Below, in pieces: positions 1-25,976 of a stretch of DNA of 25,976 bases. The notes under the pieces are model-generated. The model made no database searches. It was not told where the DNA came from and saw only the letters and a list, made by a program, of their open reading frames with translations. Numbering within the stretch: position 1 is the first letter of the stretch; each line of letters starts with the position of its first letter. Source of the DNA: a virus (lineage: Duplodnaviria > Heunggongvirae > Uroviricota > Caudoviricetes); IMG/VR virus record IMGVR_UViG_2529293141_000017, positions 1-25,976 of that record; one strand, 5' to 3'. The translations under genes were made by a program, and so were the position numbers.

Positions 1-918
1 GAAACCCGCAATGAAATCACGCAGACGGTCAGTAAAACTCTGGAAGACCAGAGTGCCACCATACAGCAGATACAGCGGGTGCAGACAGACACAAATAACG
101 ACCTGGCTGCGCTGTACATGCTGAAGGTGCAGAAAACAAAAAACGGCATTCCGTATGTTGCCGGTATAGGTGCGGGGATTGAGGATGCTGATGGCCAGCC
201 CCTGAGCAATATACTGCTGCAGGCGGACCGTATCGCGATGATTAACCCGGAGAACGGCAACAGCACGCCGCTGTTTGTGGCGCAGGGGAATCAGCTGTTC
301 ATGAACGATGTGTTCCTGAAGCGACTGTTTGCAGTGAGCATCACCTCGTCCGGCAATCCCCCGACGTTCTCCCTGACGCCGGAGGGCAGGCTGACGGCCC
401 GCAATGCGGACATCAGCGGACATATCAGTGCGAACTCGGGCACGCTCAATAATGTCGTGATAGCGGAGAACTGTACGATAAATGGCACGCTGAAAGCGGA
501 GAACATTATTGGTGATCTTGTGAAATGTGCAGGGGTGGCTTTTCCGGTGGATGGTAGTTACCTTGCGAACGGTACACGAACGCTGACGGTGTATGACGAT
601 CACAGCTTTGACCGGCAGATTATAATCCCGCCGATAATCTATGTCGGGTCAAAACAGGAATCCCGCACCAGTAATGACATCTGGACAGAGTGCTTCCTGC
701 ATGTTGATCAGAACGGACGCCGGATTTATTCAGGCAGGTCAGTGACAGAGCCGGGAATTTTCAGCGGGATCATCGATATGCCAGCCGGTCATGGTCATAT
801 CACCCTGAGTTTTACCGTAAGTTCACGACGTCAGAACGGGAGTTTTGGCAGTTCACGTATCAGTAACCTTCAGGCGATAGTGGTGAAGAAAAACAGCGCG
901 GGGATCAGTATCCGCTGA
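1..918 (+). CDS. J: Phage tail tip / host-specificity protein J, C-terminal part (5' end outside window)
   Basis: Open frame from base 1 with no stop until 918; it sits immediately upstream of the side-tail-fibre gene, as in lambda. The product assignment is from reading the translation, not from a search. Confidence 0.7.
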
Positions 919-1116
919 ACATCGCGCCCCGGGATTGCCGGAAGGAGACAAAAACCGTACAGTATGCGCGGGTGCCTTTGGCTGATGGCCGGAGGGAACA
1001 CCTGAAGGCCGGAAAGACGAAGGCCCCGGACAAACATTCATGTTTAACCCGAGGCCTGACGTTCTTCCTTCAGCAAGAAGAAGGTTAGCGCCTCTCCGTA
1101 AAAGGAGCAAGCGTTT

Positions 1117-1251
1117 ATGTCGCAAAAACCGTTAAAAACCACCGTGATTTGTATCACGGTAGTGCTCATTATCTGGATCACCCACAGTTCACTGTGCGAG
1201 TTCCGGTTCCGGATAGCGGGGCGCGGAGATTGCGGCGTTCTTACAGTGTAA
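1117..1251 (+). CDS. Hok/Gef-family-like small membrane peptide (44 aa), possibly truncated
   Basis: Own translation MSQKPLKTTVICITVVLIIWITHSSLCEFRFRIAGRGDCGVLTV: an N-terminal hydrophobic helix followed by SLCEFRFR, matching the Hok/RelF core (KSLCEIRYR). AAGGAG sits 6 nt upstream of the ATG. The C-terminus diverges from Hok. Confidence 0.3.
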   Translation: MSQKPLKTTVICITVVLIIWITHSSLCEFRFRIAGRGDCGVLTV

Positions 1252-1353
1252 GCAGTAAGAAACCGTGGCGGGGGAGAATATCCCCCGCCGACCGGTTGCT
1301 GAGGGTGGTCAGCCGGATGGCACCGTTTTAACACCAACAAACCACAAATTTTA

Positions 1354-1387
1354 CCGCAGGCCGGGAAACCGGTACTGCGGTTTTTTT
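1354..1387 (+). terminator. Rho-independent terminator-like hairpin immediately upstream of stf
   Basis: CCGCAGG ... CTGCGG stem with a nested CCGG pair, followed by T7, then GGGGG and the ATG at 1401. Confidence 0.5.
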
Positions 1388-1400
1388 ATGGGGGAAATCC

Positions 1401-2801
1401 ATGACAGTCAGAATATCGGGTGTGCTGAAGGATGGTACGGGAAAACCGGTACCGGGATGCACGATAGAGCTGAAAGCGCGCCGCACAACGGAGACGGTGA
1501 TTGTCACCACGGTGGCGTATGGTCAGCCGGGGGAAACCGGCAGTTACAGTATGGATGTTGAGCCGGGTCTGTACCGGGTGACGCTGAACACGGAAGGGTA
1601 CGCGCCGTCATATGTGGGTGACATTCTGGTGAAGGCGGATTCTGCACCGGGAACGCTGAATAAATTTCTGATGGACCTGGAGGACGCACAGTATTACCCG
1701 AAAGCCCTTGCAGAGCTGGAAGCGGTGGCAGCGGAAATCCTGAAACGTGCAGAAGCGTCAGCGGCCAGTGCGGAGGAGGCAAAAAAACGGGCAGAGAATG
1801 CGCGGGGACCGAAGGGGGATAAGGGGGACACCGGGCCGCAGGGTATTCCCGGGCCAAAAGGCGATACCCGCGAGCGGGGGCCAAAGGGTGAGCGTGGTGA
1901 GACAGGACCACAGGGGCTTCAGGGTGTGAAAGGTGAACGGGGAGAGAAGGGCGAAAAAGGCGAGCCGGGAGGGCCGGATGCGACGACGGCACAGAAGGGA
2001 ATTGTGCAGTTAAGCAGCACAACGGACAGTGATGATGAAACGAAGGCAGCCACCCCGAAAGCGGTGAAAGCGGCAATGGACAAAGCGGACGGATGCCTGG
2101 AGAAAGCGAAAAACGGTGACGATATCCCGGATAAGGTGAAGTTTCTGAACACCGTGGGGGCAGCCAGAGTATACGGGCGGGACATTCATACGGGGGCCGG
2201 TGAATGGACCACGAGTGAGTTTGTCGCCTGGCTGAAAGAAAAAGGGGCATTTGACCAGCCTTACTGGATGATGAAGGCATCACTGCTTGCGGAATTTAAT
2301 AAGGTCATCACGGATGTCGGACCGGGAAAACTCAATCTGGGAGGCTGCGCCATTGAGGTGATGGGGACGTATAACGCAGCCATAGTCCGGGTCACCATCG
2401 GCGAATACGGTGGCGATGGTTTTCTGAACGGCACGGTCTGTACCTGTACAGTTTATGGAGACACACAACGTTTTCACTGGCGGGTGGATTACAGCACAAA
2501 AAACAAGCCCACAACAGCAAGCCTGACAGTAAATGGCTGGGAGCGTGATGAAGTAACCGGTCGTTTGCGGCAATGGGGCAGTATTGAGGTAAGTGAGGAT
2601 GATGGTAAGCTTATGACACAGCACTCTATCCGTTTTCCTGTCGCTTTTCCGGTTGCTGCTCTGAATGCTCAGGTGTCTGCAGTGGGAGACCCCAACGCCA
2701 TTAAGATGTATACCCTGTCGAATCCGTCATTAGTGTCTGTGACTCTGATAACAGTCAGGGGATGCTACGGCAAGTTTTCATGGGAAGCGATCGGATACTG
2801 A
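1401..2801 (+). CDS. stf: Side tail fibre protein (lambda Stf-like) with an internal collagen-like Gly-X-Y repeat region
   Basis: The N-terminus MTVRISGVLKDGTGKPV..CTIELKARR parallels lambda Stf (MAVKISGVLKDGTGKPV), and KGIVQLSSTTDS..ATPKAVKAAMD matches the conserved fibre motif. About 58 residues of G-X-Y repeats lie at nt 1806-1980. Confidence 0.85.
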   Translation: MTVRISGVLKDGTGKPVPGCTIELKARRTTETVIVTTVAYGQPGETGSYSMDVEPGLYRVTLNTEGYAPSYVGDILVKADSAPGTLNKFLMDLEDAQYYPKALAELEAVAAEILKRAEASAASAEEAKKRAENARGPKGDKGDTGPQGIPGPKGDTRERGPKGERGETGPQGLQGVKGERGEKGEKGEPGGPDATTAQKGIVQLSSTTDSDDETKAATPKAVKAAMDKADGCLEKAKNGDDIPDKVKFLNTVGAARVYGRDIHTGAGEWTTSEFVAWLKEKGAFDQPYWMMKASLLAEFNKVITDVGPGKLNLGGCAIEVMGTYNAAIVRVTIGEYGGDGFLNGTVCTCTVYGDTQRFHWRVDYSTKNKPTTASLTVNGWERDEVTGRLRQWGSIEVSEDDGKLMTQHSIRFPVAFPVAALNAQVSAVGDPNAIKMYTLSNPSLVSVTLITVRGCYGKFSWEAIGY

Positions 2802-2810
2802 GGGCATTGT

Positions 2811-3035
2811 ATGGAACAGTATGTTTTTTCACCGTCAGAGAATATGTTCTATCCCCTGTCCCTGCGGCCGGTTTATGAGGCAGCAGGGCGCTGGCCGGAA
2901 GACGGTATTGTGGTGGATTATGTGGTGTATAAAGTCTTTGCAGCGGATGCTGCACCGGCAGGTATGAAGCGGGGCGTCGGTGCGGAAAAAATGCCGGTCT
3001 GGGTGCCGGTATCGGAGGAGGGCACGGAAACATGA
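2811..3035 (+). CDS. Tail fibre assembly protein-like, N-terminal-type fragment (74 aa)
   Basis: The N-terminus MEQYVFSPSENMFYP...AGRWPEDG resembles the N-terminal motif of tail fibre assembly chaperones. It is too short for a full Tfa and its stop overlaps the next start (ATGA). Confidence 0.4.
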   Translation: MEQYVFSPSENMFYPLSLRPVYEAAGRWPEDGIVVDYVVYKVFAADAAPAGMKRGVGAEKMPVWVPVSEEGTET

Positions 3036-3304
3036 TGCATATCAGAAATTTTTCGTATTACACCCCGGCGGAGCCGGATGTTGCAGGCGCGATGTACCTG
3101 AAGTCTGAGGATGGTCAGGACTGGTATGAGTGTCAGGCGTTGTTTTCGCCGGAGACGCTGAAGGTGGTGTATGACAGCCGGGGTGTGATTACGGGATACG
3201 GTAAGGACACTGCGTTACTGTGGCCGGTGAACCAGAGTGTGGCAGAAGTGCCGGATACCCCGGAGAACAGGAAAATTGACCTGAGCGGGCGCTGGGGGTT
3301 TTGA
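3032..3304 (+). CDS. tfa: Tail fibre assembly protein (Mu U / P2 G-like), N-terminal part; frame broken at a T4 run
   Basis: SEDGQDWYE...ETLKVVYD...VAEVPD...DLSGRWGF parallels P2 G / Mu U up to the W-x-F motif and then stops. The continuation DGEKI... lies in the -1 frame (see findings). Confidence 0.55.
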   Translation: MMHIRNFSYYTPAEPDVAGAMYLKSEDGQDWYECQALFSPETLKVVYDSRGVITGYGKDTALLWPVNQSVAEVPDTPENRKIDLSGRWGF

Positions 3305-3350
3305 CGGGGAGAAAATCACGGACCTGCTGACCGCGGAGAAAGCGCGAGGG

Positions 3351-3707
3351 ATGAAGGGCGATGAAATTAACGCCTGGCGTAATGCGATGGAAGCGGCGAA
3401 CTACACGTTTGAGCACAATGGGCGTAAATGGGACTACGGGAAGTCAACGCAGACGCGTCTTGAGCCATCGGTGGCGGCGGCGAAAGCGGGGAAACTGCCG
3501 GAGGCGTTTTTCTGGACGGATGCGGAAAACAATGATGTGCCGGTGACAGCAGAAGAGCTTATTGCGCTGAGTGAAGCGGCAGAGCAGGCGATGTTCACTA
3601 AAGGGATGGAAATCCACATTCGCCAGCGCACCATGAAGAAGGACCTGGAATCGCTGAGCAGTGCGGATGAGATCCTGGCATACAGGGTTGGCTGGGCACA
3701 GGAATAA
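3351..3707 (+). CDS. tfa: Downstream part of the same tail fibre assembly gene (or a separate 118-aa chaperone-domain ORF)
   Basis: The frame is open from 3285 and reads ...FDGEKITDLL..., completing the W-G-F-D-G motif of the upstream ORF. ATG 3351 has only a poor Shine-Dalgarno. Confidence 0.45.
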   Translation: MKGDEINAWRNAMEAANYTFEHNGRKWDYGKSTQTRLEPSVAAAKAGKLPEAFFWTDAENNDVPVTAEELIALSEAAEQAMFTKGMEIHIRQRTMKKDLESLSSADEILAYRVGWAQE

Positions 3708-3870
3708 CAGACAAAAAGATGGGGGACCATCACCTCCCCCATGAACTGCGTTGATTATGTCATTATTGTGAAGATATACACTATGCCGGGTAAATAGTGC
3801 CACGGAAAAGTTAATTCCGGAAGTGACGGAACTCTCATTTTTCGCGCATCCTGTTGATATGGATGATTTT

Positions 3871-4200
3871 TCAGATTTCCGGAAGTCCGTATTTTGCCCG
3901 GGCGCGGTTGCATGCTTCATTTGCGATGCCATTTTCTCCGGACATTGCGAATTCCCGGCACGTGGACGGACGGTTTTTGTAAACAGAGCAATATGCGTTT
4001 TTACCCGGAGTTCCCGCCAGAGCGACACATCGGGGATTTTTCTGACTGGTGCCGCGCATACAGCGATGAAAGGGGGATATTTGCTCAGTGAGACTGACCG
4101 GAACCTTTCCGCCAGCATCGTCAGCTTCTGCCCAGTAAAAAGAGACGCGGAAAAATGCACAACAGGCACCACACGTCATGCATGGATTCGGATTGTTCAT
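3871..4200 (-). CDS. YkgJ-family Cys-cluster (CxxCxxCC) zinc/iron-chelating protein, prophage moron
   Basis: [12 protein letters not shown]...RCMRGT...PRCVALAG...[14 protein letters not shown] fits the YkgJ-type pattern. Start chosen at MNNPNPC; an alternative in-frame ATG lies at 4257. Confidence 0.5.
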
Positions 4201-4299
4201 TTTTATACTATTTGTTGTTTTTTCAGCGATCAGATCAAAGGACGCTGAAAAAAACATTCTCCAAAATTAAATTATAACTATTTGATTTTATGGATAGAG

Positions 4300-8994: not shown

Positions 8995-9195
8995 GTTAAG
9001 CATCCACAGGCTGGTATCTGCAACCGATTATAACGGATGCTTAACGTAATGCGTGAAGTATGGACATATTTTATCAATTAGTGTTTTTTGCCGTTTCATA
9101 ATGTTTCAGGTTGTGCATTATGTTTTTGATTATAAACAGATTTGTGATTTTTCTTGTTCCAGCTTGTTTCACGTTGTAGCCCTTTGTGCAACGAT

Positions 9196-9221
9196 CGGTG
9201 TAGTTAATGGTGTAGTTAATT
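9196..9221. repeat. Candidate attL core (CGGTGTAGTTAATGGTGTAGTTAATT)
   Basis: Direct repeat of 24410-24435; lies immediately 5' of the int start. Confidence 0.55.
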
Positions 9222-9242
9222 GTGATGACCGGATTCAAAATT

Positions 9243-10472
9243 ATGAGCAGAGCACTTAACAAACTGAGCGATACACAGCTGAGGAAAATCAACGGCACAC
9301 CCGCCCAAAAAACAGCCTTTCTTAATGACGGTGGAAACCTGAGCGTCAGGCATTCAACCAGTGGCCTTTTAACCTGGTATTTCACTTACAGGGCCGGAAC
9401 GGGAAGGGGGGCACCACCGGAACGCATTAAGCTGGGAAATTATCCTGATCTGAGCCTGAAATCAGCCAGGGAAAAAGCCGCCCAGTGTCGCGCATGGCTG
9501 GCAGAGGGGAAAAATCCACGTCATGAAATGAATTACACCGTACAGGAAGCGTTAAAGCCGGTAACGGTTGGCGATGCGCTCACCTACTGGCTTGAGTCGT
9601 ACGCAAAGGAAAACCGTGTGGATTATGACCCACTGAAAAAGCGGCTAAATAATCACGTAATACAGCACATTGGCCCTATGCCGCTGGATAAATGCGAGCT
9701 ACGGCACTGGCTGACCTGTTTTGATCGGGTGGCAAAGAAAGCCCCTGTTTCCGCCGGGTTCCTGCTACAGACATGCAAGCAGGCGCTTAAGTTCTGCAGG
9801 AAGCGGCGCTATGCAATCAGCAACGTTCTTGATGATATGAGTGTGGCGGACGTTGGGAAAAAACCGGATATAAGTGAGCGTGTCTTAAGTAACAAAGAAC
9901 TTGGCGAATTATTGCAGGCACTGGACAAAAAAATATTTTCCCCTTACTACGTCGCACTAATCCGCCTCCTGATTGTTTTCGGATGCCGGACAGTAGAACT
10001 GAGGTTATCGGAGATCGGCGAGTGGGATTTTACCGAAATGCTCTGGACCGTTCCGAAGGAGCACAGCAAAACGAAGGTAGCCATATTCCGGCCCATACCG
10101 GAAGCGATACTGCCGTTCGTCACGCAGCTGGTGGAGCAGAACAGGCACACGGGCTTATTGCTGGGGGAAGTGAAACAGGAAACCAGCGTATCGCAGTACG
10201 GCAGATTGGTGCACAGGAGGCTTAAACACCCTCACTGGTCACTGCATGACATCCGGCGCACCTTTACAACCATGCTGAACGATTTAGGCGTTGATCCTCA
10301 CGTCGTGGAGCAGCTTACAGGCCACCAGATGCCAGGAATGCAACGCGTGTACAACCATTCCCGCTATATTGATGCGAAACGCAATGCGCTTGATATGTGG
10401 GTGGAGCGGTTGGAGATACTGGCGGGAACACATGAAAACGTAACCACGCTACCAGTAACCAGAATAAAATAA
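9243..10472 (+). CDS. int: Tyrosine integrase (P4-type)
   Basis: N-terminal LSDTQLRKI...NDGGNLSV...WYFTYR arm-binding-like region, and a C-terminal catalytic region with HDIRRTF and a terminal RY...H. Alternative ATG at 9222. Confidence 0.88.
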   Translation: MSRALNKLSDTQLRKINGTPAQKTAFLNDGGNLSVRHSTSGLLTWYFTYRAGTGRGAPPERIKLGNYPDLSLKSAREKAAQCRAWLAEGKNPRHEMNYTVQEALKPVTVGDALTYWLESYAKENRVDYDPLKKRLNNHVIQHIGPMPLDKCELRHWLTCFDRVAKKAPVSAGFLLQTCKQALKFCRKRRYAISNVLDDMSVADVGKKPDISERVLSNKELGELLQALDKKIFSPYYVALIRLLIVFGCRTVELRLSEIGEWDFTEMLWTVPKEHSKTKVAIFRPIPEAILPFVTQLVEQNRHTGLLLGEVKQETSVSQYGRLVHRRLKHPHWSLHDIRRTFTTMLNDLGVDPHVVEQLTGHQMPGMQRVYNHSRYIDAKRNALDMWVERLEILAGTHENVTTLPVTRIK

Positions 10473-10846
10473 TTTTTTTCGTGTTTTTTCAGTATGCGCA
10501 TACTGGATAAGTGCACAGATACAACGTGAAACAATGTGCAATAACGTGACACAATCACGAACAAGAGGCCAAAAAGAATACAGATTTATAAGTTACTGAT
10601 TTTTAATGCTCAGCTGGTTTTTTATACATTAGTGAATTACGCGTTAAAGCGTGCGAAAAAAGGCATAAAACAAGATTTTATGCCTTTGTATTAACATGAA
10701 TTTAAATGATTTTATCCTGATTATTCCTCTTTCTGTAAACCATGCGACACCAACATTTGCCAACTCTGAATCATCCTGACACAATCAGACACATCCCAAC
10801 GCAATAGAACACGAAATAACTCTTTAAGAAACGAAAGGGGGCAATA

Positions 10847-11035
10847 GTGTTAAGCACTGATCGGTTTATACGTGAAAAAGAATGCGAAAAGCTAACAGGC
10901 CTTAGCCGCTCATGCCGCTACCGCCTGGAAAAGGCCGGACAATTCCCATCACGTCGTAAACTTGGCGGGCGTTCTGTTGGCTGGTCTTTATCTGAGGTTT
11001 TGGCCTGGAAGGATAGCTGCAAGGCAGTTCACTAA
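10847..11035 (+). CDS. alpA: AlpA-family (MerR/Xis-like) transcriptional regulator
   Basis: 62 aa with LTGLSRS..YRL...FP..RKLGGRSVGW, matching the AlpA pattern. GTG start with an AAGGGGG Shine-Dalgarno. Confidence 0.75.
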   Translation: MLSTDRFIREKECEKLTGLSRSCRYRLEKAGQFPSRRKLGGRSVGWSLSEVLAWKDSCKAVH

Positions 11036-11215
11036 AAAGACTGGCGGCACACAGCCACCACCAATCCATTATTGACCGATACCGGGATCTCGGTATCGGG
11101 AATAAACGCCATAATACTGAGGTATAACCATGATGAAATATACGCCCGTACAGGGGCGGGGATTCGTTCGCCCTGGTGAATCTGAAAAGCCATGCTATAG
11201 GGTATTTTCAGGCAT

Positions 11216-11243
11216 AAAAAAAGCGGTCCCGATATGGAACCGC
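11216..11243 (-). terminator. Rho-independent terminator for the minus-strand repressor cassette
   Basis: On the minus strand: GGCGGTTCC atatc GGGACCGC followed by T7. Confidence 0.45.
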
Positions 11244-11311
11244 CTTTCTGAACAATTAACCCGCTGCGCCGTATGTGTCAACAATCATAAGCCCGAACAT
11301 GATAACCGTGA

Positions 11312-11515
11312 TCAGGCTGGTGGGCAATTACCTTGCTTGTTGGGGCCGTATTGTGCTGCCATTTTCATCCGTTCAGAACGTGAATATTTTTTTAGAAACT
11401 CATCAAGGACAAAAGCGCATGGAGCGAATCTTTCTGATTCATGCTCGAGCGCCATATTTTCGTGCTCTCTGTTCGTTTTTTGCGATGGTGTATTGGTTGA
11501 TTCTTTATTGGTCAT
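11312..11515 (-). CDS. Hypothetical small protein (67 aa), second gene of repressor cassette A
   Basis: Paralogue of 12028-12255: shared MTN start and a conserved C-terminal F-x-L-D/E-x-F-x-K-Y-x-R motif. It is followed by a terminator. Confidence 0.45.
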   Translation of the reverse strand: MTNKESTNTPSQKTNREHENMALEHESERFAPCAFVLDEFLKKYSRSERMKMAAQYGPNKQGNCPPA

Positions 11516-11572
11516 TGTGTGTACCTGTAAAGCAATGCGCCGTAGTACCTCACGCCACGGCGCTGATAGTAA

Positions 11573-11752
11573 TTATTCTGATTCTTTGGCCTTGCGGCGC
11601 TGGCGGCGTTTGATCTCGCCTTTTGCTGCCGTAACTAGAAATCCGGCGGTACTTTCGCCAGGTTCTTTAAGTTGCTCAATATCGGTCATTACCTCATGCG
11701 GGATTCTGACCGTTGTCATTTGTGATTTTGCGTTCTTTGCACCTGTTGCCAT
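11573..11752 (-). CDS. Ribbon-helix-helix DNA-binding protein (59 aa), candidate island repressor, copy A
   Basis: Own translation MATGAKNAKSQMTTVRIPHEVMTDIEQLKEPGESTAGFLVTAAKGEIKRRQRRKAKESE, with a beta-strand / helix / helix pattern. AGGAGA Shine-Dalgarno 7 nt upstream. Divergent from a plus-strand promoter and operators. Confidence 0.55.
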   Translation of the reverse strand: MATGAKNAKSQMTTVRIPHEVMTDIEQLKEPGESTAGFLVTAAKGEIKRRQRRKAKESE

Positions 11753-11771
11753 TTCTGGTTCTCCTGATAAT

Positions 11772-11864
11772 CGGTGTATTTCAGTATACGCAAAAAAAAG
11801 ATAAAAAAAGTCTTGCGGTGTATTTCACCTGAATGTAGATTTAAAAATGAAGGTGAAATACACC
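11772..11864. promoter_or_regulatory. Operator/promoter region A: GGTGTATTTCACC in three copies, two forming a perfect 13-bp inverted pair
   Basis: 11817-11829 and 11852-11864 are exact reverse complements; a third direct copy lies at 11772-11783. The region sits between divergent genes. Confidence 0.45.
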
Positions 11865-11938
11865 CAAAACAACAACGCCCCGCAGTGATGGGAACACATA
11901 CGGGGCGTCTAACCAAACCATTAATTGAGGTAACGATT

Positions 11939-12010
11939 ATGGCTATAAAAGAGCATAGCTTACTCTTTATACACACACAAACGCCCCGGAAACGGAATAA
12001 TCCGTTTCAT
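11939..12010 (+). pseudogene. Truncated 5' remnant of an Icd-like gene (paralogue of 12685-12879)
   Basis: MAIKEHSLLFIHTQT... shares the M-x-x-x-H-x-x-x-L-x-HTQT start with 12685, then loses similarity where cassette B begins. Confidence 0.35.
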
Positions 12011-12027
12011 AGTTCGGTTTTGTGCAC

Positions 12028-12255
12028 TCATCCTGGCGGTCGGTTTTTGCCGGATTTAAGCCGCCGTGGGTATTTATCGACAAAATCTTCAAGGGCAAAT
12101 TTTTCTGGTGGCACTAAGCGCGGCGCTGGTGGTGGTATTTTTGTTCTGGTTAGTTCTTCCTCAACTCTGGCGCAGGCTTCTGACTGCCTTTGCCGGATGA
12201 TTTCATCATCTTGCGTTTGCGTGTCTTGTATTGGTGATAGTGTGTTGTTGGTCAT
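12028..12255 (-). CDS. Hypothetical small protein (75 aa), second gene of repressor cassette B
   Basis: Paralogue of 11312-11515, same position in the cassette. Confidence 0.5.
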   Translation of the reverse strand: MTNNTLSPIQDTQTQDDEIIRQRQSEACARVEEELTRTKIPPPAPRLVPPEKFALEDFVDKYPRRLKSGKNRPPG

Positions 12256-12312
12256 GATACTGCCCTGTAAAGCAATGCGCCGTAGTACCTCACACCACGG
12301 CGCTGATAGTGA

Positions 12313-12492
12313 TTATTCTGATTCTTTGGCCTTGCGACGCTGGCGGTATTCAACTTCCCGCTTTAATGCAGCTGTAACAAACTGCCCTGTACTTTCGCCG
12401 GGCATTTTTACCGCCTCAACATTGTTCATAACTTCATGTGGAACCCTTGCCGCAACTGTTTGTGATTTTGCGTTTACTGCTTTTGTCGCCAT
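12313..12492 (-). CDS. Ribbon-helix-helix DNA-binding protein (59 aa), candidate island repressor, copy B
   Basis: MATKAVNAKSQTVAARVPHEVMNNVEAVKMPGESTGQFVTAALKREV.... GAGGGG Shine-Dalgarno upstream. Divergent from the replication operon. Confidence 0.6.
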   Translation of the reverse strand: MATKAVNAKSQTVAARVPHEVMNNVEAVKMPGESTGQFVTAALKREVEYRQRRKAKESE

Positions 12493-12542
12493 GTTGAGCA
12501 CCCCTCATAAAAAACAAATGCAGTATGCAGGAAAAAAAACAA

Positions 12543-12594
12543 GTGTTCAACACTTGACGTGTTTAACACCTCGATTTAAATTGGTGTTCAACAC
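12543..12594. promoter_or_regulatory. Operator/promoter region B: three GTGTT(C/T)AACAC palindromes overlapping a TTGACG-N17-TAAATT promoter
   Basis: Palindromes at 12543, 12559 and 12584 bracket the -35 and -10 of the plus-strand promoter feeding 12685 onward. Confidence 0.5.
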
Positions 12595-12684
12595 CTTATT
12601 TAGGCAAGGTGTAGAAACGACGAAACCCCGCACTGTAGGAGCAGTAACGGGGCTTCTAACCAACAACGTAAACGAGGAGCCGTT

Positions 12685-12879
12685 ATGGTTGCCGTAAATC
12701 ATATACCACACCTTGTACACACACAAACGGCCTTTGTGTGGCGTTTTCTGGCACTGAGTGCCGGAGAATCTCAAATCATCCACGTAACCGCCTGGACGGA
12801 ACGCGAAGCGCGTAACCTTTGCCCGTCCGGTTGTGTTGCTGTATTTGCCGCCCGTATTCGCCAGGGGGTAGGCTTATGA
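12685..12879 (+). CDS. Small protein, possibly Icd-like (host cell division inhibitor family); first gene of the early operon
   Basis: 64 aa with a GAGGAG Shine-Dalgarno. The motif FVWRFLALS...TEREAR...FAARI resembles Icd-like proteins of P4-type elements, from memory only. Confidence 0.5.
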   Translation: MVAVNHIPHLVHTQTAFVWRFLALSAGESQIIHVTAWTEREARNLCPSGCVAVFAARIRQGVGL

Positions 12880-13109
12880 GCCAGGAAATCACACTACAAC
12901 AGGCAGCAGAACGCGCCCACCAAATCGAAGTTATTTGCGCACTGGCAGAGGATTACCCTGGCATGATGACCGACAGCGAATCAGGGGCAATCATCGGCTT
13001 ACTTAAACGCCTTAGCGGTGAGGTCTGCGTATTCCTGAGCGATGAACAGGAAAGAAGAACGCTTATTTCTAACGAAAAAAAATGCGGAGGGGTACACCAT
13101 GTGCAATAA
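12876..13109 (+). CDS. Hypothetical protein (77 aa)
   Basis: ATG overlaps the upstream stop (ATGA); GGGGGT Shine-Dalgarno; translationally coupled. Confidence 0.5.
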   Translation: MSQEITLQQAAERAHQIEVICALAEDYPGMMTDSESGAIIGLLKRLSGEVCVFLSDEQERRTLISNEKKCGGVHHVQ

Positions 13110-13341
13110 CATCCGTCCGGACGCAGCCGCCGCCGCACTCACTACGCTGATGCACGCGCTTATTGATATTGAATGCACGGCAGAGCTTGCACAAAAGGAA
13201 GAACGGGAGGAATACACATTGTTCGCCCTGGAATGTATCCGATACACCGCCACGCGGTCGCTGAATGACGCTAAAAATATTCTTGTTGCAGATTGTGAAA
13301 ATGGGGGGGGGTTATGCGTGATGATCGTTTTAATTCCCTGA
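13099..13341 (+). CDS. Hypothetical protein (80 aa) with a G9 tract near its 3' end
   Basis: GGAGGGG Shine-Dalgarno before ATG 13099; overlaps the neighbouring genes. Confidence 0.45.
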   Translation: MCNNIRPDAAAAALTTLMHALIDIECTAELAQKEEREEYTLFALECIRYTATRSLNDAKNILVADCENGGGLCVMIVLIP

Positions 13342-13547
13342 AACAAGAATTTTCCGGCGTTCCTGATGATGCGGCTGATGCGCTTTCGTCAATGCCAGAA
13401 CTTATTAGAGCGGCTTTTTTCTTACTTTCCACGAGAGAATATAAATCAACGGGGCTTGATGTACTGAATATCGCCGCCGATTATGCGGAATATGTGGCAG
13501 AGGCGCGTTACAGAAGAAAATTTCCTGAGGATGTAAGCCATGCGTGA
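13314..13547 (+). CDS. Hypothetical protein (77 aa)
   Basis: ATG directly after the G9 tract, which serves as its Shine-Dalgarno; operon context. Confidence 0.5.
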   Translation: MRDDRFNSLKQEFSGVPDDAADALSSMPELIRAAFFLLSTREYKSTGLDVLNIAADYAEYVAEARYRRKFPEDVSHA

Positions 13548-13773
13548 TATTTACCACGAAACAACAGAACGCGTATTTCTTGCACTTTCTCACAGTGAAA
13601 ACATGCTGGAAATATTGCGCATATGGCTTGAAACACTTGGCGACAATGAACGCGACAAACAAAAATCAAGAATTGTCACGGCATTAATAACGCTTCTTGA
13701 GCCTGTAATAATGGAACTACAAGAAATAGAGACATTGCACGACAGATATAACGAACAGCACACCGGAGAATAA
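13540..13773 (+). CDS. Hypothetical protein (77 aa)
   Basis: Start overlaps the upstream stop (ATGCGTGA); operon context. Confidence 0.5.
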   Translation: MRDIYHETTERVFLALSHSENMLEILRIWLETLGDNERDKQKSRIVTALITLLEPVIMELQEIETLHDRYNEQHTGE

Positions 13774-13778
13774 AAATA

Positions 13779-14078
13779 ATGAAACTTAAATATTCTGGCT
13801 TAACTGCCAGTGGCAACACTCACCCTAAATTTACGCGCGGTGATATTTACCGCGACCAGTACGGCGGTACGGTAATGATTAAGGGCGTGGCGGGACGGTG
13901 CGTAACTTACCGCCGTGAAGGTTACGAATATGATTGCGTGATGCCTGTTTATCAGTTCCGGCGTGATTTTTCTCTGGTACAGACCGCGCCGCATAACGTG
14001 CCCACCAGCAGGGAGAAAGCACGCGCCAATATTCAGAAGATGAAAAACATGATTAACGGATTCAGGGGCAAGAAATGA
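13779..14078 (+). CDS. Hypothetical protein (99 aa), translationally coupled to the helicase gene
   Basis: Stop overlaps the helicase ATG (ATGA). Confidence 0.55.
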   Translation: MKLKYSGLTASGNTHPKFTRGDIYRDQYGGTVMIKGVAGRCVTYRREGYEYDCVMPVYQFRRDFSLVQTAPHNVPTSREKARANIQKMKNMINGFRGKK

Positions 14079-15472
14079 AAAGCGCACCGAACTTAAAAAA
14101 ACAGCCTTACGACAAGATGACCGAAGTCATCATTTTTGCGGGTAGTGATGCGTGGGCACATGCGAAACAGTGGCAGGAACAGGACGGGCGACTGGCTGGC
14201 GATAATGTGCCTCCCATTGTGCTGGCTGATGATCAACTGGATGAACTGGCAGACCTGAGAATCATCGACGAGGGGCGCTATTGTGTCCGGCTGTACAAGG
14301 CAGGCCACATCAGGCCATCAAATATTAATGCCATTGCGCACAAGCTGGCGGCGGCGGGCGTAACTGATGCGAATTATTACCCCGAAGGGATACACAGCCA
14401 GAAGCGGGAGAACTGGCGCGAATATCTGGAACGGGAGCGGGGGAAAAAGCCAGGGGAAGAACACCACCAGCGAAAAACCACGCTACCGATGAGCGTTGGA
14501 TCTGCCGGATACGACACGCAATTAGATTACGTGGTAAAGGGGATTATTCCGGCATCGTCGCTTTGCAGCATATACGGGGCGAGCGGTTCCTATAAATCAT
14601 TCCTTGCGGGTTCGTGGGCGTGTCACGTTTCCACGGGCCGCCAGTGGGGAGGCCGCAGGGTGGCGCATGGCGCTGTTCTCTATGTGGTTGGTGAAGGCGG
14701 TATCGGCGTTCCGCGTCGTGTAAAAGCCTGGGAGGTTGTGCACGGTGAGCAGGTGAAAAATCTGTATCTGGTAAACCGTCCCATCTTTCCGGCGGTCCCG
14801 CTTGATGTTGATGAAATGGTTATCGCTGCCCGTCAGGTGGAGCGGGAAACGGGTAAACCTGTACGCATGATTATTCTGGATACGCTGGCGCGTTGCTTTG
14901 GTGGGAATGATGAAAATGATTCCCGTGATATGGGGGCGTTTATCCGTGGTTGTGACGAACTGAAACGACGCACAGGGGCCACGGTGCTGGTGGTTCACCA
15001 TTCCGGCAAGGATGAGACGAAAGGCGCGCGCGGTTCCAGTGCATTTCGTGCATCACTGGATGCTGAATACCGGATACGCAGGGAGGACGCAGGAAGCGAA
15101 GCGCTGGTTATCTCATGCACCAAAATGAAGGACGCGGAGGAACTCAAAGAAGCCGCATATGACTTACGCGTGGTGGAGCTGTTTACCGACGCTGACGGGG
15201 AGTTAATCACGTCGCTGGTGGTGGTGGATAAGCCGCGCCCTCCCGTTGAACTGGAGCGCATCGAGGAGGCAGGCAACAAGACGGAAAACCATACCGCACT
15301 ATGGGGGTGCATCCGTTCACGCACACAGAACGGCGACAAGTGCACGATCCCGCTGTTACGTGATGACATGAAACGGCTTGGGTATGACGTGAAAAATATG
15401 CGGCGATGGTTAGCCAAACTGGAAAAAGACGCCGTGATTTACATTGATGGTGATGATGTAGGACCACTGTAA
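14075..15472 (+). CDS. Replicative ATPase/helicase (RecA-fold, RepA/AAA_25-like) with an N-terminal domain of unknown role
   Basis: Walker A GASGSYKS, Walker B-like ILDTLARCFGG, and VVHHSGKD...GARGSSA motifs. Confidence 0.8.
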   Translation: MKSAPNLKKQPYDKMTEVIIFAGSDAWAHAKQWQEQDGRLAGDNVPPIVLADDQLDELADLRIIDEGRYCVRLYKAGHIRPSNINAIAHKLAAAGVTDANYYPEGIHSQKRENWREYLERERGKKPGEEHHQRKTTLPMSVGSAGYDTQLDYVVKGIIPASSLCSIYGASGSYKSFLAGSWACHVSTGRQWGGRRVAHGAVLYVVGEGGIGVPRRVKAWEVVHGEQVKNLYLVNRPIFPAVPLDVDEMVIAARQVERETGKPVRMIILDTLARCFGGNDENDSRDMGAFIRGCDELKRRTGATVLVVHHSGKDETKGARGSSAFRASLDAEYRIRREDAGSEALVISCTKMKDAEELKEAAYDLRVVELFTDADGELITSLVVVDKPRPPVELERIEEAGNKTENHTALWGCIRSRTQNGDKCTIPLLRDDMKRLGYDVKNMRRWLAKLEKDAVIYIDGDDVGPL

Positions 15473-15672
15473 AAAGTGAGTAGCAAAAGTGAGTAATGAT
15501 GAGGTTTTTACAAAATATTAACACGATTACTCACTTTCTCACCTGTATACATGCTCAAAAGTGAGGAGTAAAAAAATCATTATGAAACATACACATAAAG
15601 CATCAAAAAATATCAAGTGAGACGAAGCGAGACGCTTTAAAAAGTGAGGTGTAAAAGTGAGCATGAGTGAGG
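15473..15672. repeat. Iteron array (AAAGTGAG, at least 7 direct and 1-2 inverted copies) with an AT-rich spacer: candidate island replication origin
   Basis: Copies at 15473, 15486, 15530 (inverted), 15558, 15615, 15641 and 15654, immediately 3' of the helicase gene. Confidence 0.55.
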
Positions 15673-15926
15673 AGATAACCAAAATGCGCAGAGACAGAAC
15701 AGGGCCGAAATATAAAGCGTTAGACATGACAGAGCACGCCTTAAAGGTGGCAATCAGGGTAATAGACCGCCACGCGGGGGAAGGATACGCGAAAGCACAT
15801 CCCGAACTGATAAGCGCATTCATGACCACGACGGCGGCAAATTTTGCCACGCTGACAGAGCGGGAGATTGCCGAAGCGGAACAGGTAACAACCATCAACG
15901 TTAAAACCGGAGAGGTGGAATCATGA
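15663..15926 (+). CDS. Hypothetical protein (87 aa)
   Basis: ORF begins inside the last iterons; its stop overlaps the next ATG. Confidence 0.4.
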   Translation: MSEEITKMRRDRTGPKYKALDMTEHALKVAIRVIDRHAGEGYAKAHPELISAFMTTTAANFATLTEREIAEAEQVTTINVKTGEVES

Positions 15927-16228
15927 GCGAACCAAAATTTGGTGAAAAATTTTACAAGCACAACGGACGGATCACGATTCTGCAAATAAGCGCAGCTACA
16001 CCAGGCTGGTGGGTTGAAACAGACGAAGGATCCTCACCCGTGGCATCATGGGCGCTTTGTGTGCTTAGTTACCCTGACCGCGATGTGTATCAGGATATTC
16101 TGCCTGTGATATCCACTGACAAAGGCATGAAACCCGTAGACATCAAAAACATGGGGTTTCAGTGCGTAATGCTCACTGAAAAAATGATGGAAGAGATGAA
16201 AAAGAACAATGCCGGATCGCTTCACTGA
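15923..16228 (+). CDS. Hypothetical protein (101 aa)
   Basis: Coupled ORF upstream of ssb. Confidence 0.5.
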   Translation: MSEPKFGEKFYKHNGRITILQISAATPGWWVETDEGSSPVASWALCVLSYPDRDVYQDILPVISTDKGMKPVDIKNMGFQCVMLTEKMMEEMKKNNAGSLH

Positions 16229-16237
16229 GGTGGCAAT

Positions 16238-16648
16238 ATGACAGCACAAATTGCAGCTTACGGGCGGCTGGTGGACGACCCGCAGGTAAAACAGAGCAGC
16301 AAGGGCACACCGATGACTCTGGCGCGTATGGCGGTATCGTTGCCATGCAGCCAGGCACATGACGGACAGGCGACGTTATGGTTATCGGTTATCGCATTTG
16401 GCAAACAGGCCGATTTCCTGGCTAAACATCAAAAAGGCGATGTTGCCAGCGTATCCGGCACGATGCAGGTAAGCCAGTGGACCGGACAGAACGGGGAAAC
16501 GCGGCGGGGGTATCAGGTTATTGCAGACAGCGTAATCAGTGCCCGCGCGGCACGTCCAGGCGGGAACAGACGCAAAACCACAGGCACACAGGGTAATCAG
16601 CCACCAGCGGGAGGCGATGACCCTTACGGTGACGGTATTCCGTTCTGA
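16238..16648 (+). CDS. ssb: Single-stranded DNA-binding protein
   Basis: OB-fold-like N-terminal region, a Gly/Pro/Gln-rich linker, and an acidic C-terminal tip DDPYGDGIPF (compare DDDIPF of SSB). Confidence 0.8.
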   Translation: MTAQIAAYGRLVDDPQVKQSSKGTPMTLARMAVSLPCSQAHDGQATLWLSVIAFGKQADFLAKHQKGDVASVSGTMQVSQWTGQNGETRRGYQVIADSVISARAARPGGNRRKTTGTQGNQPPAGGDDPYGDGIPF

Positions 16649-16658
16649 GGGGGTGACG

Positions 16659-16907
16659 ATGGTACATGACCGCATAGCGGAGGAACTCGAGGCAAAAGGC
16701 TTTTACCGGAGGGCGTCGGCGCGATGGGGTGAAGTCATGCAACTGGTGGAGACAGACAAGGAACGGCATCAGGTTACGATGCGACGGCTGGAATGTTCCA
16801 GGAAGGCACAGAGGCCACCGGAGCCGCCAACGGAGAACTACGCAGACCTGAGAAATGCAGTAAATCGCACTTACGCAGACATGGGGCTGAGCAAATTAGC
16901 AGAGTAG
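16659..16907 (+). CDS. PerC-family-like transcriptional regulator (82 aa)
   Basis: MVHDRIAEELEAKGFYRRASARWGEVM resembles the PerC/Pch N-terminal motif; GAGGGGG Shine-Dalgarno. Confidence 0.5.
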   Translation: MVHDRIAEELEAKGFYRRASARWGEVMQLVETDKERHQVTMRRLECSRKAQRPPEPPTENYADLRNAVNRTYADMGLSKLAE

Positions 16908-17173
16908 GAATATCAGAACCACACCATACAGCCGGAGCAATCCGGCTTTTTGTTATTTTTTGTAAATTATTTGTTCGTGGTTGTTCCACGTTGTTCACTG
17001 AGCGGATCGGCATATTTTACCCGAACTGAATCATGATTATTCTCGCCCGTGGTGCCAGGACGCTGGGGCCACTTTCCCGCCTGTTAATGTGCTCGCCAAT
17101 ATTCATTACCAGGCGGGAAAACGATCGGTGCGATTGCTGATTTCCTTATGAAAAACGGTTGAGTGTTTGCCGC

Positions 17174-17211
17174 GTCCTGGAGTTCCTTACTTAACCCCAG
17201 GACTTTTTTTT
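17174..17211 (+). terminator. Terminator-like hairpin plus T8 ending 1 nt before the major capsid ATG
   Basis: GTCCTGG ... CCAGGAC stem followed by TTTTTTTT and then ATG 17212. Confidence 0.45.
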
Positions 17212-18369: not shown

Positions 18370-18423
18370 CAGCATACAGAAGGGGCTTAAAAGCCCCTTT
18401 AGTGTTTTATGGGTGAAAAAATT

Positions 18424-18981: not shown

Positions 18982-18982
18982 T

Positions 18983-21431: not shown

Positions 21432-21552
21432 TGCTGTATGACGGGGTGGGGGGGCGTTTTCAGGACAAACCCGACCCCGCCGGGCACCGAACGCCTCCTC
21501 AAATTTTTATGCACGGGAATTTTTTGAAAAATAATCTGGCGAAAAAATAAGC

Positions 21553-23554: not shown

Positions 23555-23567
23555 TGAGGTCAGCAGC

Positions 23568-23849: not shown

Positions 23850-23963
23850 CTTGTTGATTAAAAGGCGGCTCAATTCTGAGCTGGGTAGCTGACGGCGGTA
23901 ACTGTTTTATATTCCCGATAGCGCAAAAATGCGCGGTCGGGCAGAATGACCACCACCTCAATC

Positions 23964-24233: not shown

Positions 24234-24409
24234 AACCCACCAGCCTGATTAAATGTTAACCGGAAAAAAAATCCGGTAGCCCCGTTATGGGGATCCCCAT
24301 ATCGACATTAACGCCCCTCATGAATTGGTGCGCTTCCCCCTGGAAAGATTACCCGCCTGTATATTTCTTGTGTCTATTTGTTCCACGTTGTTTCATACAG
24401 TGCACCGAA

Positions 24410-24435
24410 CGGTGTAGTTAATGGTGTAGTCAATT
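24410..24435. repeat. Candidate attR core (CGGTGTAGTTAATGGTGTAGTCAATT)
   Basis: 25/26 identical to 9196-9221, in direct orientation. Confidence 0.55.
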
Positions 24436-24515
24436 TGCGATTTTTGGCACTTTTTCAATGATAATTGTTTAATTAAATCAATGACTTGACCTGGTGTGGT
24501 GATAAAAGGACATAT

Positions 24516-25976
24516 TTATTCATCTTTCGGCGCAGAATGCTGGCGACCAAAAATCACCTCCATCCGCGCACCGCCCAGCATGCTCTCTCCGGCGACGATT
24601 TTACCCTCATATTGCTCGGTGATTTCGCGGGCTACCGCCAGCCCTACACCTTGCCCAGGGCGTAAAGTATCAACCCGTTGACCACGGTCGAAAATGACCT
24701 CTCGCTTGCTTAATGGAATACCGGGGCCATCATCCTCGACCACAATATAGAGATGCTCGTCGGTTTGCCTTGCAGAAATTTCGACAAACTCGAGGCAATA
24801 TTTACAGGCATTATCCAGCACGTTGCCCATCACCTCGACAAAATCGTTCTGCTCACCGACAAAGCTGATCTCTGGCGAAATATCGAGAGAGATATTGACC
24901 CCTTTGCGTTGATACACTTTGTTCAGCGCTGAGGTGAGATTGTCCAGCAGTGGGGCGACCGGATGCAGCTCGCGGCTGAGCAATGTCCCGCCGCGCATAC
25001 TGGCACGATGCAGGTAGTAGCCAATTTGCTGTGAAATGCGGCTGATTTGCTCCAGCATTACCGGCTCAGCATCACTGACGCTCATCTTTTCACTACGCAG
25101 AGAACGCAGCGTACTTTGCAGCACCGCCAGTGGCGTTTTCAGACTATGGGTCAGGTCGGTGAGCGTCGTACGGTATTTGTCGTAACGTTCGCGTTCACTT
25201 TTTAACAATCGGTTCAGGTTTCGTACCAGACTGGTCAGTTCTCGCGTTGTGGCTGGATTGAGCAATTCGCGGTTATGTTCTTCCAGTTCGCGGACTTCTT
25301 TTGCCAGGGCTTCGATGGGGCGTAAACTCCACCAGGCGGCGACCCACAGCAGCGGGATCACTAACAGCAGATTGGCTGAGAGCACATAGATAAACCAGCT
25401 CCAGACCATATAGGAACTTTTTAGCTCCACCGGAATGGTATCCACCACCACAATGGTTAATTTTGGCATCCGCGATGTTGCCGGGTAGACGTTTACTGCC
25501 ACCGAGTGGGTCATCTCCGCGTCGTCATCATCTTCCCGCACTTCCTGCAACTGTTGCTGTATCGAATGATCTCCACTCAGCAAGAGGCTGGTATCGTTAA
25601 CATCCGCTTCAATTTCATGAAAACCATTCGATTTCAGCCAGTCAGGCTGGATCATCTTCATCAGCCAGGGCACGTCACGTTGCGCCCATAAAAGCTGCCC
25701 GTTCTCATCATAAATTAGCGTCATGGTGGGGCTTTGCTTGTCGATATTTTCGGGTAACTCGACATGCAACTTATTGTTTTCCCACTTCGCAAGGGTATAG
25801 AACAGATTGCTCTCGCCACGTAACAGCCGAAACGTAGTTTTATCGAAACTGACGCTATAACCGATCAGCGCGACCATTCCGTAGGCAAGCGAAAGCACCA
25901 GTACTACCGCTGCCGTTGCCAACAGAAAACGTACCCGCAGCGAGAGCGGGAAAAAAAGACGCAGTAATTTTTTCAT
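24516..25976 (-). CDS. phoQ: Sensor histidine kinase PhoQ
   Basis: 486 aa starting [25 protein letters not shown]..., with a periplasmic sensor region, HAMP and a HisKA/ATPase core; the start lies at the window edge. Confidence 0.96.

Follow-up and report, generated by a model that had tools for sequence, protein, structure and literature searches.

Putative integrase arm-type doublets and phased TTGTT arrays in the attachment-site arms of an EcCIEDL933-like phage satellite

We analysed a 25,976-nt stretch of DNA from a Caudoviricetes record (IMG/VR record IMGVR_UViG_2529293141_000017, positions 1 to 25,976; hereafter the window), which carries an element that, judged from its genes and its ends, is an EcCIEDL933-like capsid-forming phage-inducible chromosomal island (PICI), a phage satellite, at the 3′ end of phoQ. 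A first-pass annotation had drawn attention to two near-perfect 26-bp direct repeats that bracket this element, read either as duplicated attachment (att) sequence or as integrase arm-type sites, and to a TTGTT motif that precedes both of them and recurs once in the interior. We find that both repeats lie inside the element, that each is a tandem doublet of a 12-bp unit, and that this unit varies across related elements with one short segment of the N-terminal domain of the integrase (Int). The 26-bp repeats are probably integrase arm-type sites that flank a 10-bp crossover site. The TTGTT motif forms arrays of a second kind, putative sites for another protein, which are reused at two other control regions of the element. 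Taking these observations together, we regard it as likely that recombination occurs in a short core, with the 12-bp doublets as putative Int arm-type sites and the TTGTT arrays as putative sites for the satellite regulator AlpA.

Results

Ends of the element and its core

Comparison with the empty site places the whole integrated element at 9072-24517 on the plus strand (15,446 bp). The roxA-phoQ spacer of E. coli K-12 is 75 bp long and has neither the 26-mer nor the TTGTT motif, and against K-12 the junctions read ...gtgaagtatGGACATATTT|tatcaattagtg at attL and ...gtgataaaaGGACATATTT|attcatctttcgg at attR. We reconstructed attB by joining the window up to 9071 to the window from 24518 onward, and searched the resulting 86 nt against 5,426 complete E. 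coli genomes. This sequence is found at 100% identity over the 86 nt in several of the genomes listed, and at least 80% of it is covered in 4826 of the 5426. Because K-12 supplies the empty site and the sequence left after removal of 9072-24517 exists verbatim as an attB, we conclude that this interval is the element.

The true block of identity between the two junctions is the sequence GGACATATTT, which is found exactly twice in the window, at 9062-9071 and at 24508-24517, where it overlaps the phoQ stop codon (24516-24518, minus strand). Its first 7 bp, GGACATA, are presumed to be the overlap (crossover) region. The attR copy is preceded by TGATAAAA at 24500-24507, and the reconstructed attP core reads TGATAAAA-GGACATA-TTTTATCA, a perfect 8-bp inverted repeat around a 7-bp spacer. 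An inverted repeat around a short spacer is the usual core anatomy of tyrosine recombinases. Four matches to the consensus of integration host factor (IHF) occur in the window (1.17 expected), and the one at 24476-24488 is partly kept in related elements and might, from its sequence and position, bend the DNA there. No RNA gene was found at or near the att regions in Rfam (gathering threshold) or in tRNA scans, and attB here is not of the tRNA or small-RNA type.

The mobile DNA continues beyond the repeats on both sides. Copies of the element at tqsA in other strains, where the identity block is ATAACAGCA, match the window from 9068 to 24486, which runs past both 26-mers, and the repeats therefore lie within mobile DNA. 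The element DNA outside them (125 bp on the left and 73-82 bp on the right) moves along to tqsA and to other sites, and the boundaries of the element are corrected by 73-134 bp at each end. We also considered whether 9068-9195 could be a remnant of an older element, and rejected this because the segment is contiguous with int at five other sites and precise deletion restores a natural attB.

The element has the gene content of a capsid-forming PICI, with int, alpA, a replication module and an HK97 capsid-to-TerL set in about 15 kb, and tail and lysis genes are absent. Based on Pfam and on annotated relatives in E. coli that are 93-97% identical to it, the gene order is int, alpA, an Icd-like gene, a DUF4222 gene, a RepA-family helicase gene, iterons, SSB and PerC, followed by HK97 capsid, prohead protease, portal, head-closure and connector proteins, HNH, TerS, TerL and a conserved 93-aa open reading frame. 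EcCIEDL933 is the published capsid-forming type, at 15.4 kb (bioRxiv 10.1101/2022.09.08.507074), and O157:H7 genomes also have an EcCIEDL933-type element at the roxA/phoQ site. The same site in CFT073 holds the classical PICI EcCICFT073, whose P′ arm and int 5′ end are 96% identical to the window. None of the complete E. coli genomes of the collection has an end-to-end 100% match to the element of the window.

12-bp doublets that vary with the integrase

The repeats are exactly where the first-pass annotation put them, at 9196-9221 (cggtgtagttaatggtgtagttaatt) and 24410-24435 (cggtgtagttaatggtgtagtcaatt), and their 25/26 identity is far above chance. Each is a head-to-tail doublet of the 12-bp unit GGTGTAGTTAAT, the second unit of the right doublet being GGTGTAGTCAAT, and an independent call by Tandem Repeats Finder puts the doublets at 9197-9224 and 24411-24434. 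The related loci L003, L004 and L005 keep the T/C difference of the second right unit. Allowing at most one mismatch, GGTGTAGTNANT occurs at four positions in the window, all of them within the doublets, where 0.8 would be expected. The 26-mers form the 3′ ends of a longer 75-nt direct repeat that is in register (9147-9221 and 24361-24435, 77% identity). Measured from the overlap centre (9065), the left doublet begins at 132 bp, and 22 bp separate its end from the int start codon; the right one ends 77 bp before the overlap centre (24511), so that relative to that centre the two span +132..+155 and -77..-100. In both arms the doublet is unrelated to the core.

The integrase has an N-terminal Arm-DNA-bind_3 domain at residues 8-95 (PF13356, E=7.8e-18), which aligns with the solved N-domains of CP4-like integrases (PDB 3JTZ and 3JU0), and a catalytic domain (PF00589, E=4.7e-17). 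We compared 16 elements in E. coli at nine integration sites (roxA/phoQ, tqsA, abgR/smrA, yifB, cspD/clpS, rcnR/thiM, tRNA-Pro, gcd/hpt and a prophage terminase gene), together with 69 loci from a scan of one genome per species, mostly other Enterobacterales with integrases mostly 41-57% identical to the query, of which about 55 were analysed. Nine E. coli loci were scanned, including the window, L002, L004, L008, L009, L012, L014 and L015; each has one doublet just upstream of int and a co-oriented second one at the far end, with no further copy in 23-40 kb. The far-end copy matches at 23-24 of 24 positions in the other E. coli loci of this Int family, and no doublet was identified in L016, a PICI embedded in a prophage. 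Among the distant loci, the automatic detector placed a doublet 32-60 bp upstream of int in about 44 of some 55, with two outliers near 130 bp. Where the far end is visible (14 E. coli loci and 5 of the roughly 55 others), a second copy with 20-24 of 24 matches is present in 18 of 19; in host flank, with the exception of a single locus, the best match reaches 13-17 of 24.

In the 13 E. coli loci and the approximately 55 others, the 12-bp unit varies with one short segment of the Int N-domain, independently of AlpA and of core specificity. About ten variants of this segment are found over some 70 loci, each with its own doublet (Table 1). The pairs suggest a simple recognition code of the Arm-DNA-bind_3 domain. 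The motif LSV[R/K] belongs to the stretch around Int residues ~33-44 (window 9339-9374). Elements with R in this motif have CAAT and those with K have CACT, a pairing seen in two independent backgrounds (the GTAGT and GTATC series). The paired bases are at positions 9-11 of the 12-mers, and this pairing may reflect a direct contact between residue and base.

Table 1. Int N-domain segments and the 12-bp units found with them.
Int segment	12-bp unit	Found in
NDGGNLSVRHSTSGLLTWYF	GGTGTAGTTAAT	E. coli
SDGGNLSVKYLTSGKLTWYF	GGTGTAGTCACT	E. coli
SDGGGLEIKHSKGGKLTWYF	TGTGTGGTCAGT	E. coli
ADGEGLSVKVSKQGNVSWVF	GGTRTATCACTC	E. coli
LSVRASKQGQLSW	GGTGTATCAATC	other Enterobacterales
LSIKAFKSGQLSW	GGTGTATCACTC	other Enterobacterales
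LSAKASKAGGISW	TGTATAAACAWT	other Enterobacterales
LMIRVTKKGSISW	GGTGGGGTAMTC	other Enterobacterales
LSVRVSTNGSVSF	TGTGTATTGCA	other Enterobacterales

Natural exchanges between elements separate the doublet from AlpA. The window and L002, the element at tqsA, have AlpA proteins that are 100% identical and integrases that are 89% identical, with the differences clustered in residues 1-60 and 121-210. Their Int N-domains read LSVRHSTSGLL and LSVKYLTSGKL, respectively, and their units have GTTAAT and GTCACT in both arms. Thus both doublets differ, whereas the stretches that separate them from the core are conserved. Conversely, L009-11 have the Int segment and 12-mer of the window with a different AlpA and different TTGTT units, and L012 combines an L009-type AlpA and TTGTTCG units with a different Int segment and the 12-mer TGTGTGGTCAGT. 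The mosaic pattern seen in the window and L002 argues for co-selection over simple linkage.

One point weighs against the view that the doublets are bound by the N-terminal arm domain of Int. The variable part of the 12-mer in the P′ arm is only ~25-45 bp from the int 5′ end, so linkage contributes to the P′-arm half of the covariation. The argument for selection is made from the copy in the P arm and from the mosaic pattern, and the arm domain is the probable binder.

Phased TTGTT arrays

The TTGTT motif flanking the repeats is real and forms part of larger phased arrays, with coordinates that differ by 2-5 nt from those first reported: TTGTTCCAGCTTGTTTCA is at 9154-9171, TTGTTCCACGTTGTTTCA is at 24378-24395 and the internal copy TTGTTCCACGTTGTTCA is at 16981-16997. 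The arrays consist of TTGT at an exact 10-bp period, and there are four of them: one in each attP arm, one immediately behind int, and one that precedes the capsid operon. The one after int (10517-10566), which is inverted, had escaped the first-pass annotation. In both arms the array has 3-4 units and ends 3 nt before the 12-mer doublet, and the P′-arm array is kept at the same position in all related E. coli elements. The array after int is ~280 bp upstream of alpA, and 3-6 units are present there in 10 of 12 related E. coli loci. The internal array follows directly on the perC terminator (16930-16947) and precedes the capsid gene (17167) by ~170 bp.

These arrays occur far more often than chance predicts. 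TTGT forms three chains of at least three units at a 10-bp period, where 400 first-order Markov simulations predict 0.0025, and there are 11 pairs of TTGT at 10 bp against 1.25 +/- 1.1 expected, 10 of the 11 being inside the four arrays. No chain of at least three was found outside the elements in 13 E. coli loci, a host flank that we estimate at roughly 300 kb. A strict search for phased TGTT in the 55 distant loci gave only 4 hits, and none in 442 kb of upstream flank; the arrays of distant relatives are too degenerate or too different for this strict criterion, and several were read by eye. Such arrays were seen in the int-alpA interval of Erwinia and Proteus relatives, with ~9 GTTC(A/G/C) units in L057 (~11900-12000) and ~4 ATTGTC units in L051, both at a 10-bp period, which suggests that phased arrays ahead of alpA are a feature of the whole family.

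The window and L002 have different Int N-domains and different doublets and the same TTGTT arrays, and thus the TTGTT array is separate and does not follow the integrase. The earlier suggestion of integrase arm-type sites therefore stands in part: such sites are probably involved, and the evidence gives the role to the 12-bp doublets within the 26-mers, not to the TTGTT motif. Scans for sigma-70 promoters in 9000-11100 and 16600-17300 gave nothing convincing beside the arrays, with the perC terminator as the only signal, and for this reason our promoter assignments are tentative. As a separate observation, RefSeq annotates a 60-aa "hypothetical protein" in L002 (4007-4189) and L007 (20007-20189), corresponding to window ~9074-9260 on the minus strand, that spans the TTGTT array, the doublet and the int start; because the architecture of the sites is conserved, it is probably an annotation artefact.

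Candidate binders of the arrays and of the doublets

The element encodes a small winged-helix protein of the recombination directionality factor (RDF) type, AlpA, and the phased repeats adjoin the putative Int arm sites. Each of the 16 E. coli elements examined has AlpA, as do 12 further loci tested, and no xis gene was recognised in the element by Pfam or by the annotation of related elements. In EcCICFT073, AlpA switches on the promoter of its own gene, and its over-expression leads to int-dependent excision and replication (PMC6092414). Because the arrays resemble the sites of the RDF TorI, because AlpA drives excision and activates its own gene, and because no xis was recognised, we infer that AlpA binds the arrays. 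On this reading the TTGTTC(C/G) arrays would be the AlpA operator, with AlpA acting as RDF or excisionase at both arms, as self-activator after int, and as activator of the capsid and packaging operon at 16950-17000; we put the chances that AlpA binds and acts at the arrays at about even or slightly better, and those of a single operator with all three roles at slightly under even.

Several observations weigh against AlpA. A Pint-lacZ fusion of EcCICFT073 does not respond to AlpA (PMC6092414), even though a TTGTT array is directly upstream of int. The type of unit pairs with AlpA in part, in that TTGTTYCACG units go with the 62-aa AlpA, TTGTTCGNNN units with the 69/74-aa AlpA (in L009-11, with a 69-aa AlpA, they take the place of TTGTTYCACG) and CACCGGA with the very different AlpA of the Nissle PICI, where it recurs at a 10-bp period in the P′ arm, with two more copies 25-35 bp upstream of alpA. 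The types are not exclusive, however: TTGTTCG units are also present in elements with the 62-aa AlpA, and the covariation with AlpA is consequently much weaker than that with Int. L015, an exception to the pairing, has a different AlpA allele and keeps a capsid-promoter array that travels with the capsid module, and classical PICIs with the same AlpA (those of CFT073 and 042) are without the third array.

The strongest competing explanation is that another factor, such as another protein of the PICI, a nucleoid protein of the host or an inducer from the helper phage, binds the arrays, or that they are mainly intrinsically bent DNA. The unresponsive Pint and the persistence of the L015 array fit this explanation, as does the fact that helper phages activate alpA and that an array sits in the int-alpA interval. 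On the other side, the arrays are seen within the elements and not in the E. coli host flank or in the upstream flank of the distant loci, the array sequence changes with the very different AlpA of Nissle, the likeness to TorI sites extends to both core sequence and phasing, and AlpA is present in every element and further locus in which it was looked for. We judge this explanation to be unlikely, at perhaps one chance in a few. PerC was considered as the binder and rejected, since L009, L014 and L016 are without perC and the arms of L009 nevertheless have TTGTTCG arrays. Our search of the PICI literature, including a search for electrophoretic mobility shift assays, found no description of an AlpA binding site.

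For the doublets, the alternative is that AlpA or another protein, and not the arm domain of Int, is the binder, as AlpA is listed among the possibilities in the paper on helper-embedded PICIs (HE-PICIs; PMC10111431). The natural exchanges described above speak against it, because identical AlpA proteins are found with different doublets and different AlpA proteins with the same doublet, and the doublet always follows the Int N-domain segment. We consider this alternative improbable.

The internal array and the modular structure

The third copy of the motif does lie at the junction of the replication and capsid modules, as first noted, and had been proposed to be a scar of site-specific recombination that fused the two. 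Its position is suggestive. Homology between the window and CFT073 extends (with gaps) from the left end to 16951 and resumes at 23568, the capsid block held in common with O157 elements begins at 16925, and the copy at ~16981 is within ~20-45 bp of these two points. However, no 12-mer doublet, arm site or core-like sequence is present there, and in the window GGACATATTT and the 12-mers are restricted to the positions already given. The breakpoint instead coincides with the terminator hairpin AGCCGGAGCAATCCGGCT at 16930-16947, after perC, and this hairpin is found, with small variants, after perC or ssb in 4 of 5 other PICIs inspected. A breakpoint at a conserved hairpin makes the latter a plausible homologous linker for ordinary recombination between related satellites. 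The TTGTT array starts ~20 bp past the hairpin, as part of the capsid module. Against the otherwise diverged sequence of L008 in this region, 16941-16996 stands out as an isolated conserved island (87.7%), and L015 has the array too, as would be expected of an array under selection. Because there is no 12-mer or core at the internal copy and because it is a conserved island in a diverged promoter region, we read the internal array as a probable regulatory element at the head of the capsid operon, and we hold a recombination scar to be very improbable.

The modular view of the island itself holds good, with its boundary at the conserved terminator hairpin after perC. Elements that carry only part of the island, which the first-pass annotation had suggested looking for, are indeed found: classical PICIs have the left half and the right end, and the capsid module is found with other int/alpA sets in L008 and L015.

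Least credible of all is that the 26-bp repeats, which as near-perfect direct repeats bracket the element from int to its last gene, are an att core duplicated on integration of an element reaching from ~9196 to 24435, since the 26-mers are absent from both the empty K-12 site and the reconstructed attB, removal of 9072-24517 regenerates an attB found verbatim in genomes, and the sequence outside the repeats (9068-9195 and 24436-24486) moves with the element to loci such as tqsA.

Coordinates and other features of the window

The features discussed above are collected in Table 2.

Table 2. Positions of attachment-site and regulatory features in the window.
Feature	Positions	Strand	Basis or remark
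attL identity block GGACATATTT	9062..9071		K-12 and reconstructed attB junctions
Core-type site C′ (presumed), TTTTATCA	9069..9076	+	read from sequence
P′-arm phased array TTGTTCCAGC TTGTTTCACG TTGTAGCCCT TTGTGCAACG, candidate AlpA (RDF-type) array	9154..9193	+	4 units, 10-bp period
P′-arm putative integrase arm-type doublet, GGTGTAGTTAAT x2	9197..9220	+	Tandem Repeats Finder; covariation with Int N-domain
int, P4/CP4-57-like tyrosine integrase, 409 aa	9243..10472	+	Pfam
Inverted phased array, minus strand TTGTTCGTGA TTGTGTCACG TTATTGCACA TTGTTTCACG TTGTATCTGT	10517..10566	-	directly after int stop codon
alpA, 62-aa winged-helix regulator, candidate TTGTT-array binder	10847..11035	+	Pfam PF05930, E=5e-18
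Internal array ("third copy"), TTGTTCGTGG TTGTTCCACG TTGTTCACTG at 16971-17000 and two weaker TTGT units from 16950	16950..17000	+	
P-arm phased array TTGTGTCTAT TTGTTCCACG TTGTTTCATA	24368..24397	+	3 units, in register with P′-arm array
P-arm putative integrase arm-type doublet, GGTGTAGTTAAT GGTGTAGTCAAT	24411..24434	+	Tandem Repeats Finder
Candidate IHF bending site AATCAATGACTTG (consensus WATCAANNNNTTR)	24476..24488	+	between P-arm doublet and core
Core-type site C (presumed), TGATAAAA, then attR identity block GGACATATTT	24500..24517		sequence; junction comparison

Other features of the element were also observed. Just downstream of the RepA-family helicase gene, at 15467-15683, are iteron-like repeats AAAAGTGAG(G/T)AG, ~85 bp apart, which are probably the replication origin of the satellite, as generally described for Gram-negative PICIs. 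A 125-nt direct repeat (11505-11629 and 12245-12369, 82%) corresponds to two copies of a small minus-strand gene, which in related elements is annotated as YlcI/YnfO family. In the non-coding DNA after the last gene, at 23964-24003, there are four GTGAC units with a 10-11-bp period (cGTGACggagaGTGACaaccaGTGACacaccGTGACaaaaag). This stretch is an isolated conserved island in the diverged capsid-forming PICI of L008 (23963-24009, 97.9%), and the classical PICI of strain 042 shows the same conservation; the units may be a packaging (cos/TerS) site or another protein-binding array.

Outside the element, 1-4250 lies within the tail end of a lambdoid prophage, with the GpJ C-terminus, a protein with a tail-fibre N-terminal region and collagen repeats, and a DUF4376 protein that is taken to be a tail-fibre assembly protein. 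A match to the sok antitoxin RNA (Rfam RF01794, 62.9 bits against a gathering threshold of 59) is at 970-1128 on the plus strand, between the gpJ-like and tail-fibre genes. The prophage adjoins potB, with potC apparently interrupted or replaced, and prophage DNA is present at this place in CFT073 and in an O157 strain as well.

Discussion

A model for attP and its regulation

The arrangement described here can be put together as follows. Recombination would take place in the short core TGATAAAA-GGACATA-TTTTATCA, and each attP arm holds, inside the element, one copy of the 75-nt composite module. The units of the doublets would be bound by the Arm-DNA-bind_3 domain of a heterobivalent satellite integrase, and with four half-sites at -77 and +132 bp an Int tetramer could bridge the arms and the core in the intasome, with a candidate IHF bend in the P arm. 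The TTGTTC(C/G)-type arrays, with one unit per helical turn upstream of the doublets, would be bound cooperatively by AlpA acting as RDF. The arrays after int and before the capsid operon would serve AlpA as operators, through which it would activate its own gene and the late genes, and shared AlpA operators would thereby couple excision to induction.

E. coli has two PICIs that serve as experimental models, and this analysis provides for one of them an anatomical map of attP, comprising the core, the overlap, the doublets, a candidate IHF site and the putative RDF arrays. A doublet that was reported in 2023 to be unique to HE-PICIs is now extended to the wider P4/CP4-57-like integrase family, and the pairs of Int segment and 12-mer could guide work to re-target delivery vehicles built on PICIs. 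In Gram-negative PICIs, AlpA acts as the master switch of induction, and the arrays offer a concrete operator candidate for it that can be tested cheaply. If they are indeed the AlpA operator, they would be the first defined cis-element for Gram-negative PICI induction and would explain the coupling of excision to capsid expression.

Comparison with known systems

Among the closest known systems are EcCIEDL933 and EcCICFT073, which have the same integration site, integrase, alpA and arm sequences as the window (96-98.6% over the P′ arm and int 5′ end). EcCIEDL933 has the same capsid-forming gene set, and the element of the window is a variant. The literature searched on these two elements (PMC6092414; bioRxiv 10.1101/2022.09.08.507074) does not describe arm sites, core anatomy or an AlpA operator. 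The published AlpA of EcCICFT073 is an activator, and its role as excisionase is a proposal made here.

The attP of HE-PICIs contains the doubled motif tgTGTATTGCantgTGTATTGCa twice, in the same orientation, at distances from the centre of 81 +/- 2 bp on the upstream side and 132 +/- 2 bp on the downstream side; the motif was stated to be absent from other PICIs, and the Int arm domains, AlpA or another protein were given as possible binders (PMC10111431). The window is alike in having an 11-12-bp tandem doublet, two co-oriented copies per attP, the integrase family, and alpA beside int. The geometry is matched in both the window and L002, with 77 bp to the doublet end and 132 bp to the doublet start. 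The sequences differ, the core of the HE-PICI motif being TGTATTGC and the unit of the window GGTGTAGTTAAT. We found TGTATTGC-type units only in L071, L072 and L074, which have a different Int segment, and the automatic detector reported no doublet for L070. Since the TGTATTGC unit is thus one among many covarying variants, the doublet is family-wide, and the natural swaps bear on the question of the binder left by that paper, favouring the arm domain of Int over AlpA.

In KplE1 (CPS-53), a prophage remnant and not a satellite, int likewise stands beside attL with its promoter inside the arm, and TorI is a small winged-helix RDF. The TorI sites GTTCG, GATCG and GTCCG, which were defined by experiment, are described in attL only (PMC2951348), and in this they differ from the arrays of the window. 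In the K-12 sequence, three such sites have a 10-bp period (caGTTCGtcatgGTTCGcttcaGATCGttgaca) and are beside the Int arm sites and the int promoter PintS. The similarity between TorI and AlpA is weak (26% over 42 aa), and TorI falls below the Pfam threshold for PF05930.

P2 Cox and P4 Vis are multifunctional proteins, both RDFs and regulators, in which one small protein acts on near-helically phased direct repeats at att and at promoters. The protein (sub)families and the motifs differ from those of AlpA, and the dual logic of att site and promoter is alike to that proposed here.

The last comparison is with the lambda-type intasome and its P1/P2, P′1-3, IHF and Xis sites. The integrase of the window is of the P4/CP4-57-like clade (PF13356), its putative arm sites are two symmetric doublets, its putative RDF arrays are in both arms and not in one, and int is transcribed from within attL, all of which are differences. 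The common features are arm sites that are apart from the core and on both sides of attP, an N-terminal arm-binding domain, an inverted-repeat core around a 7-bp overlap, and an IHF site, for which the window has a candidate, between arm and core.

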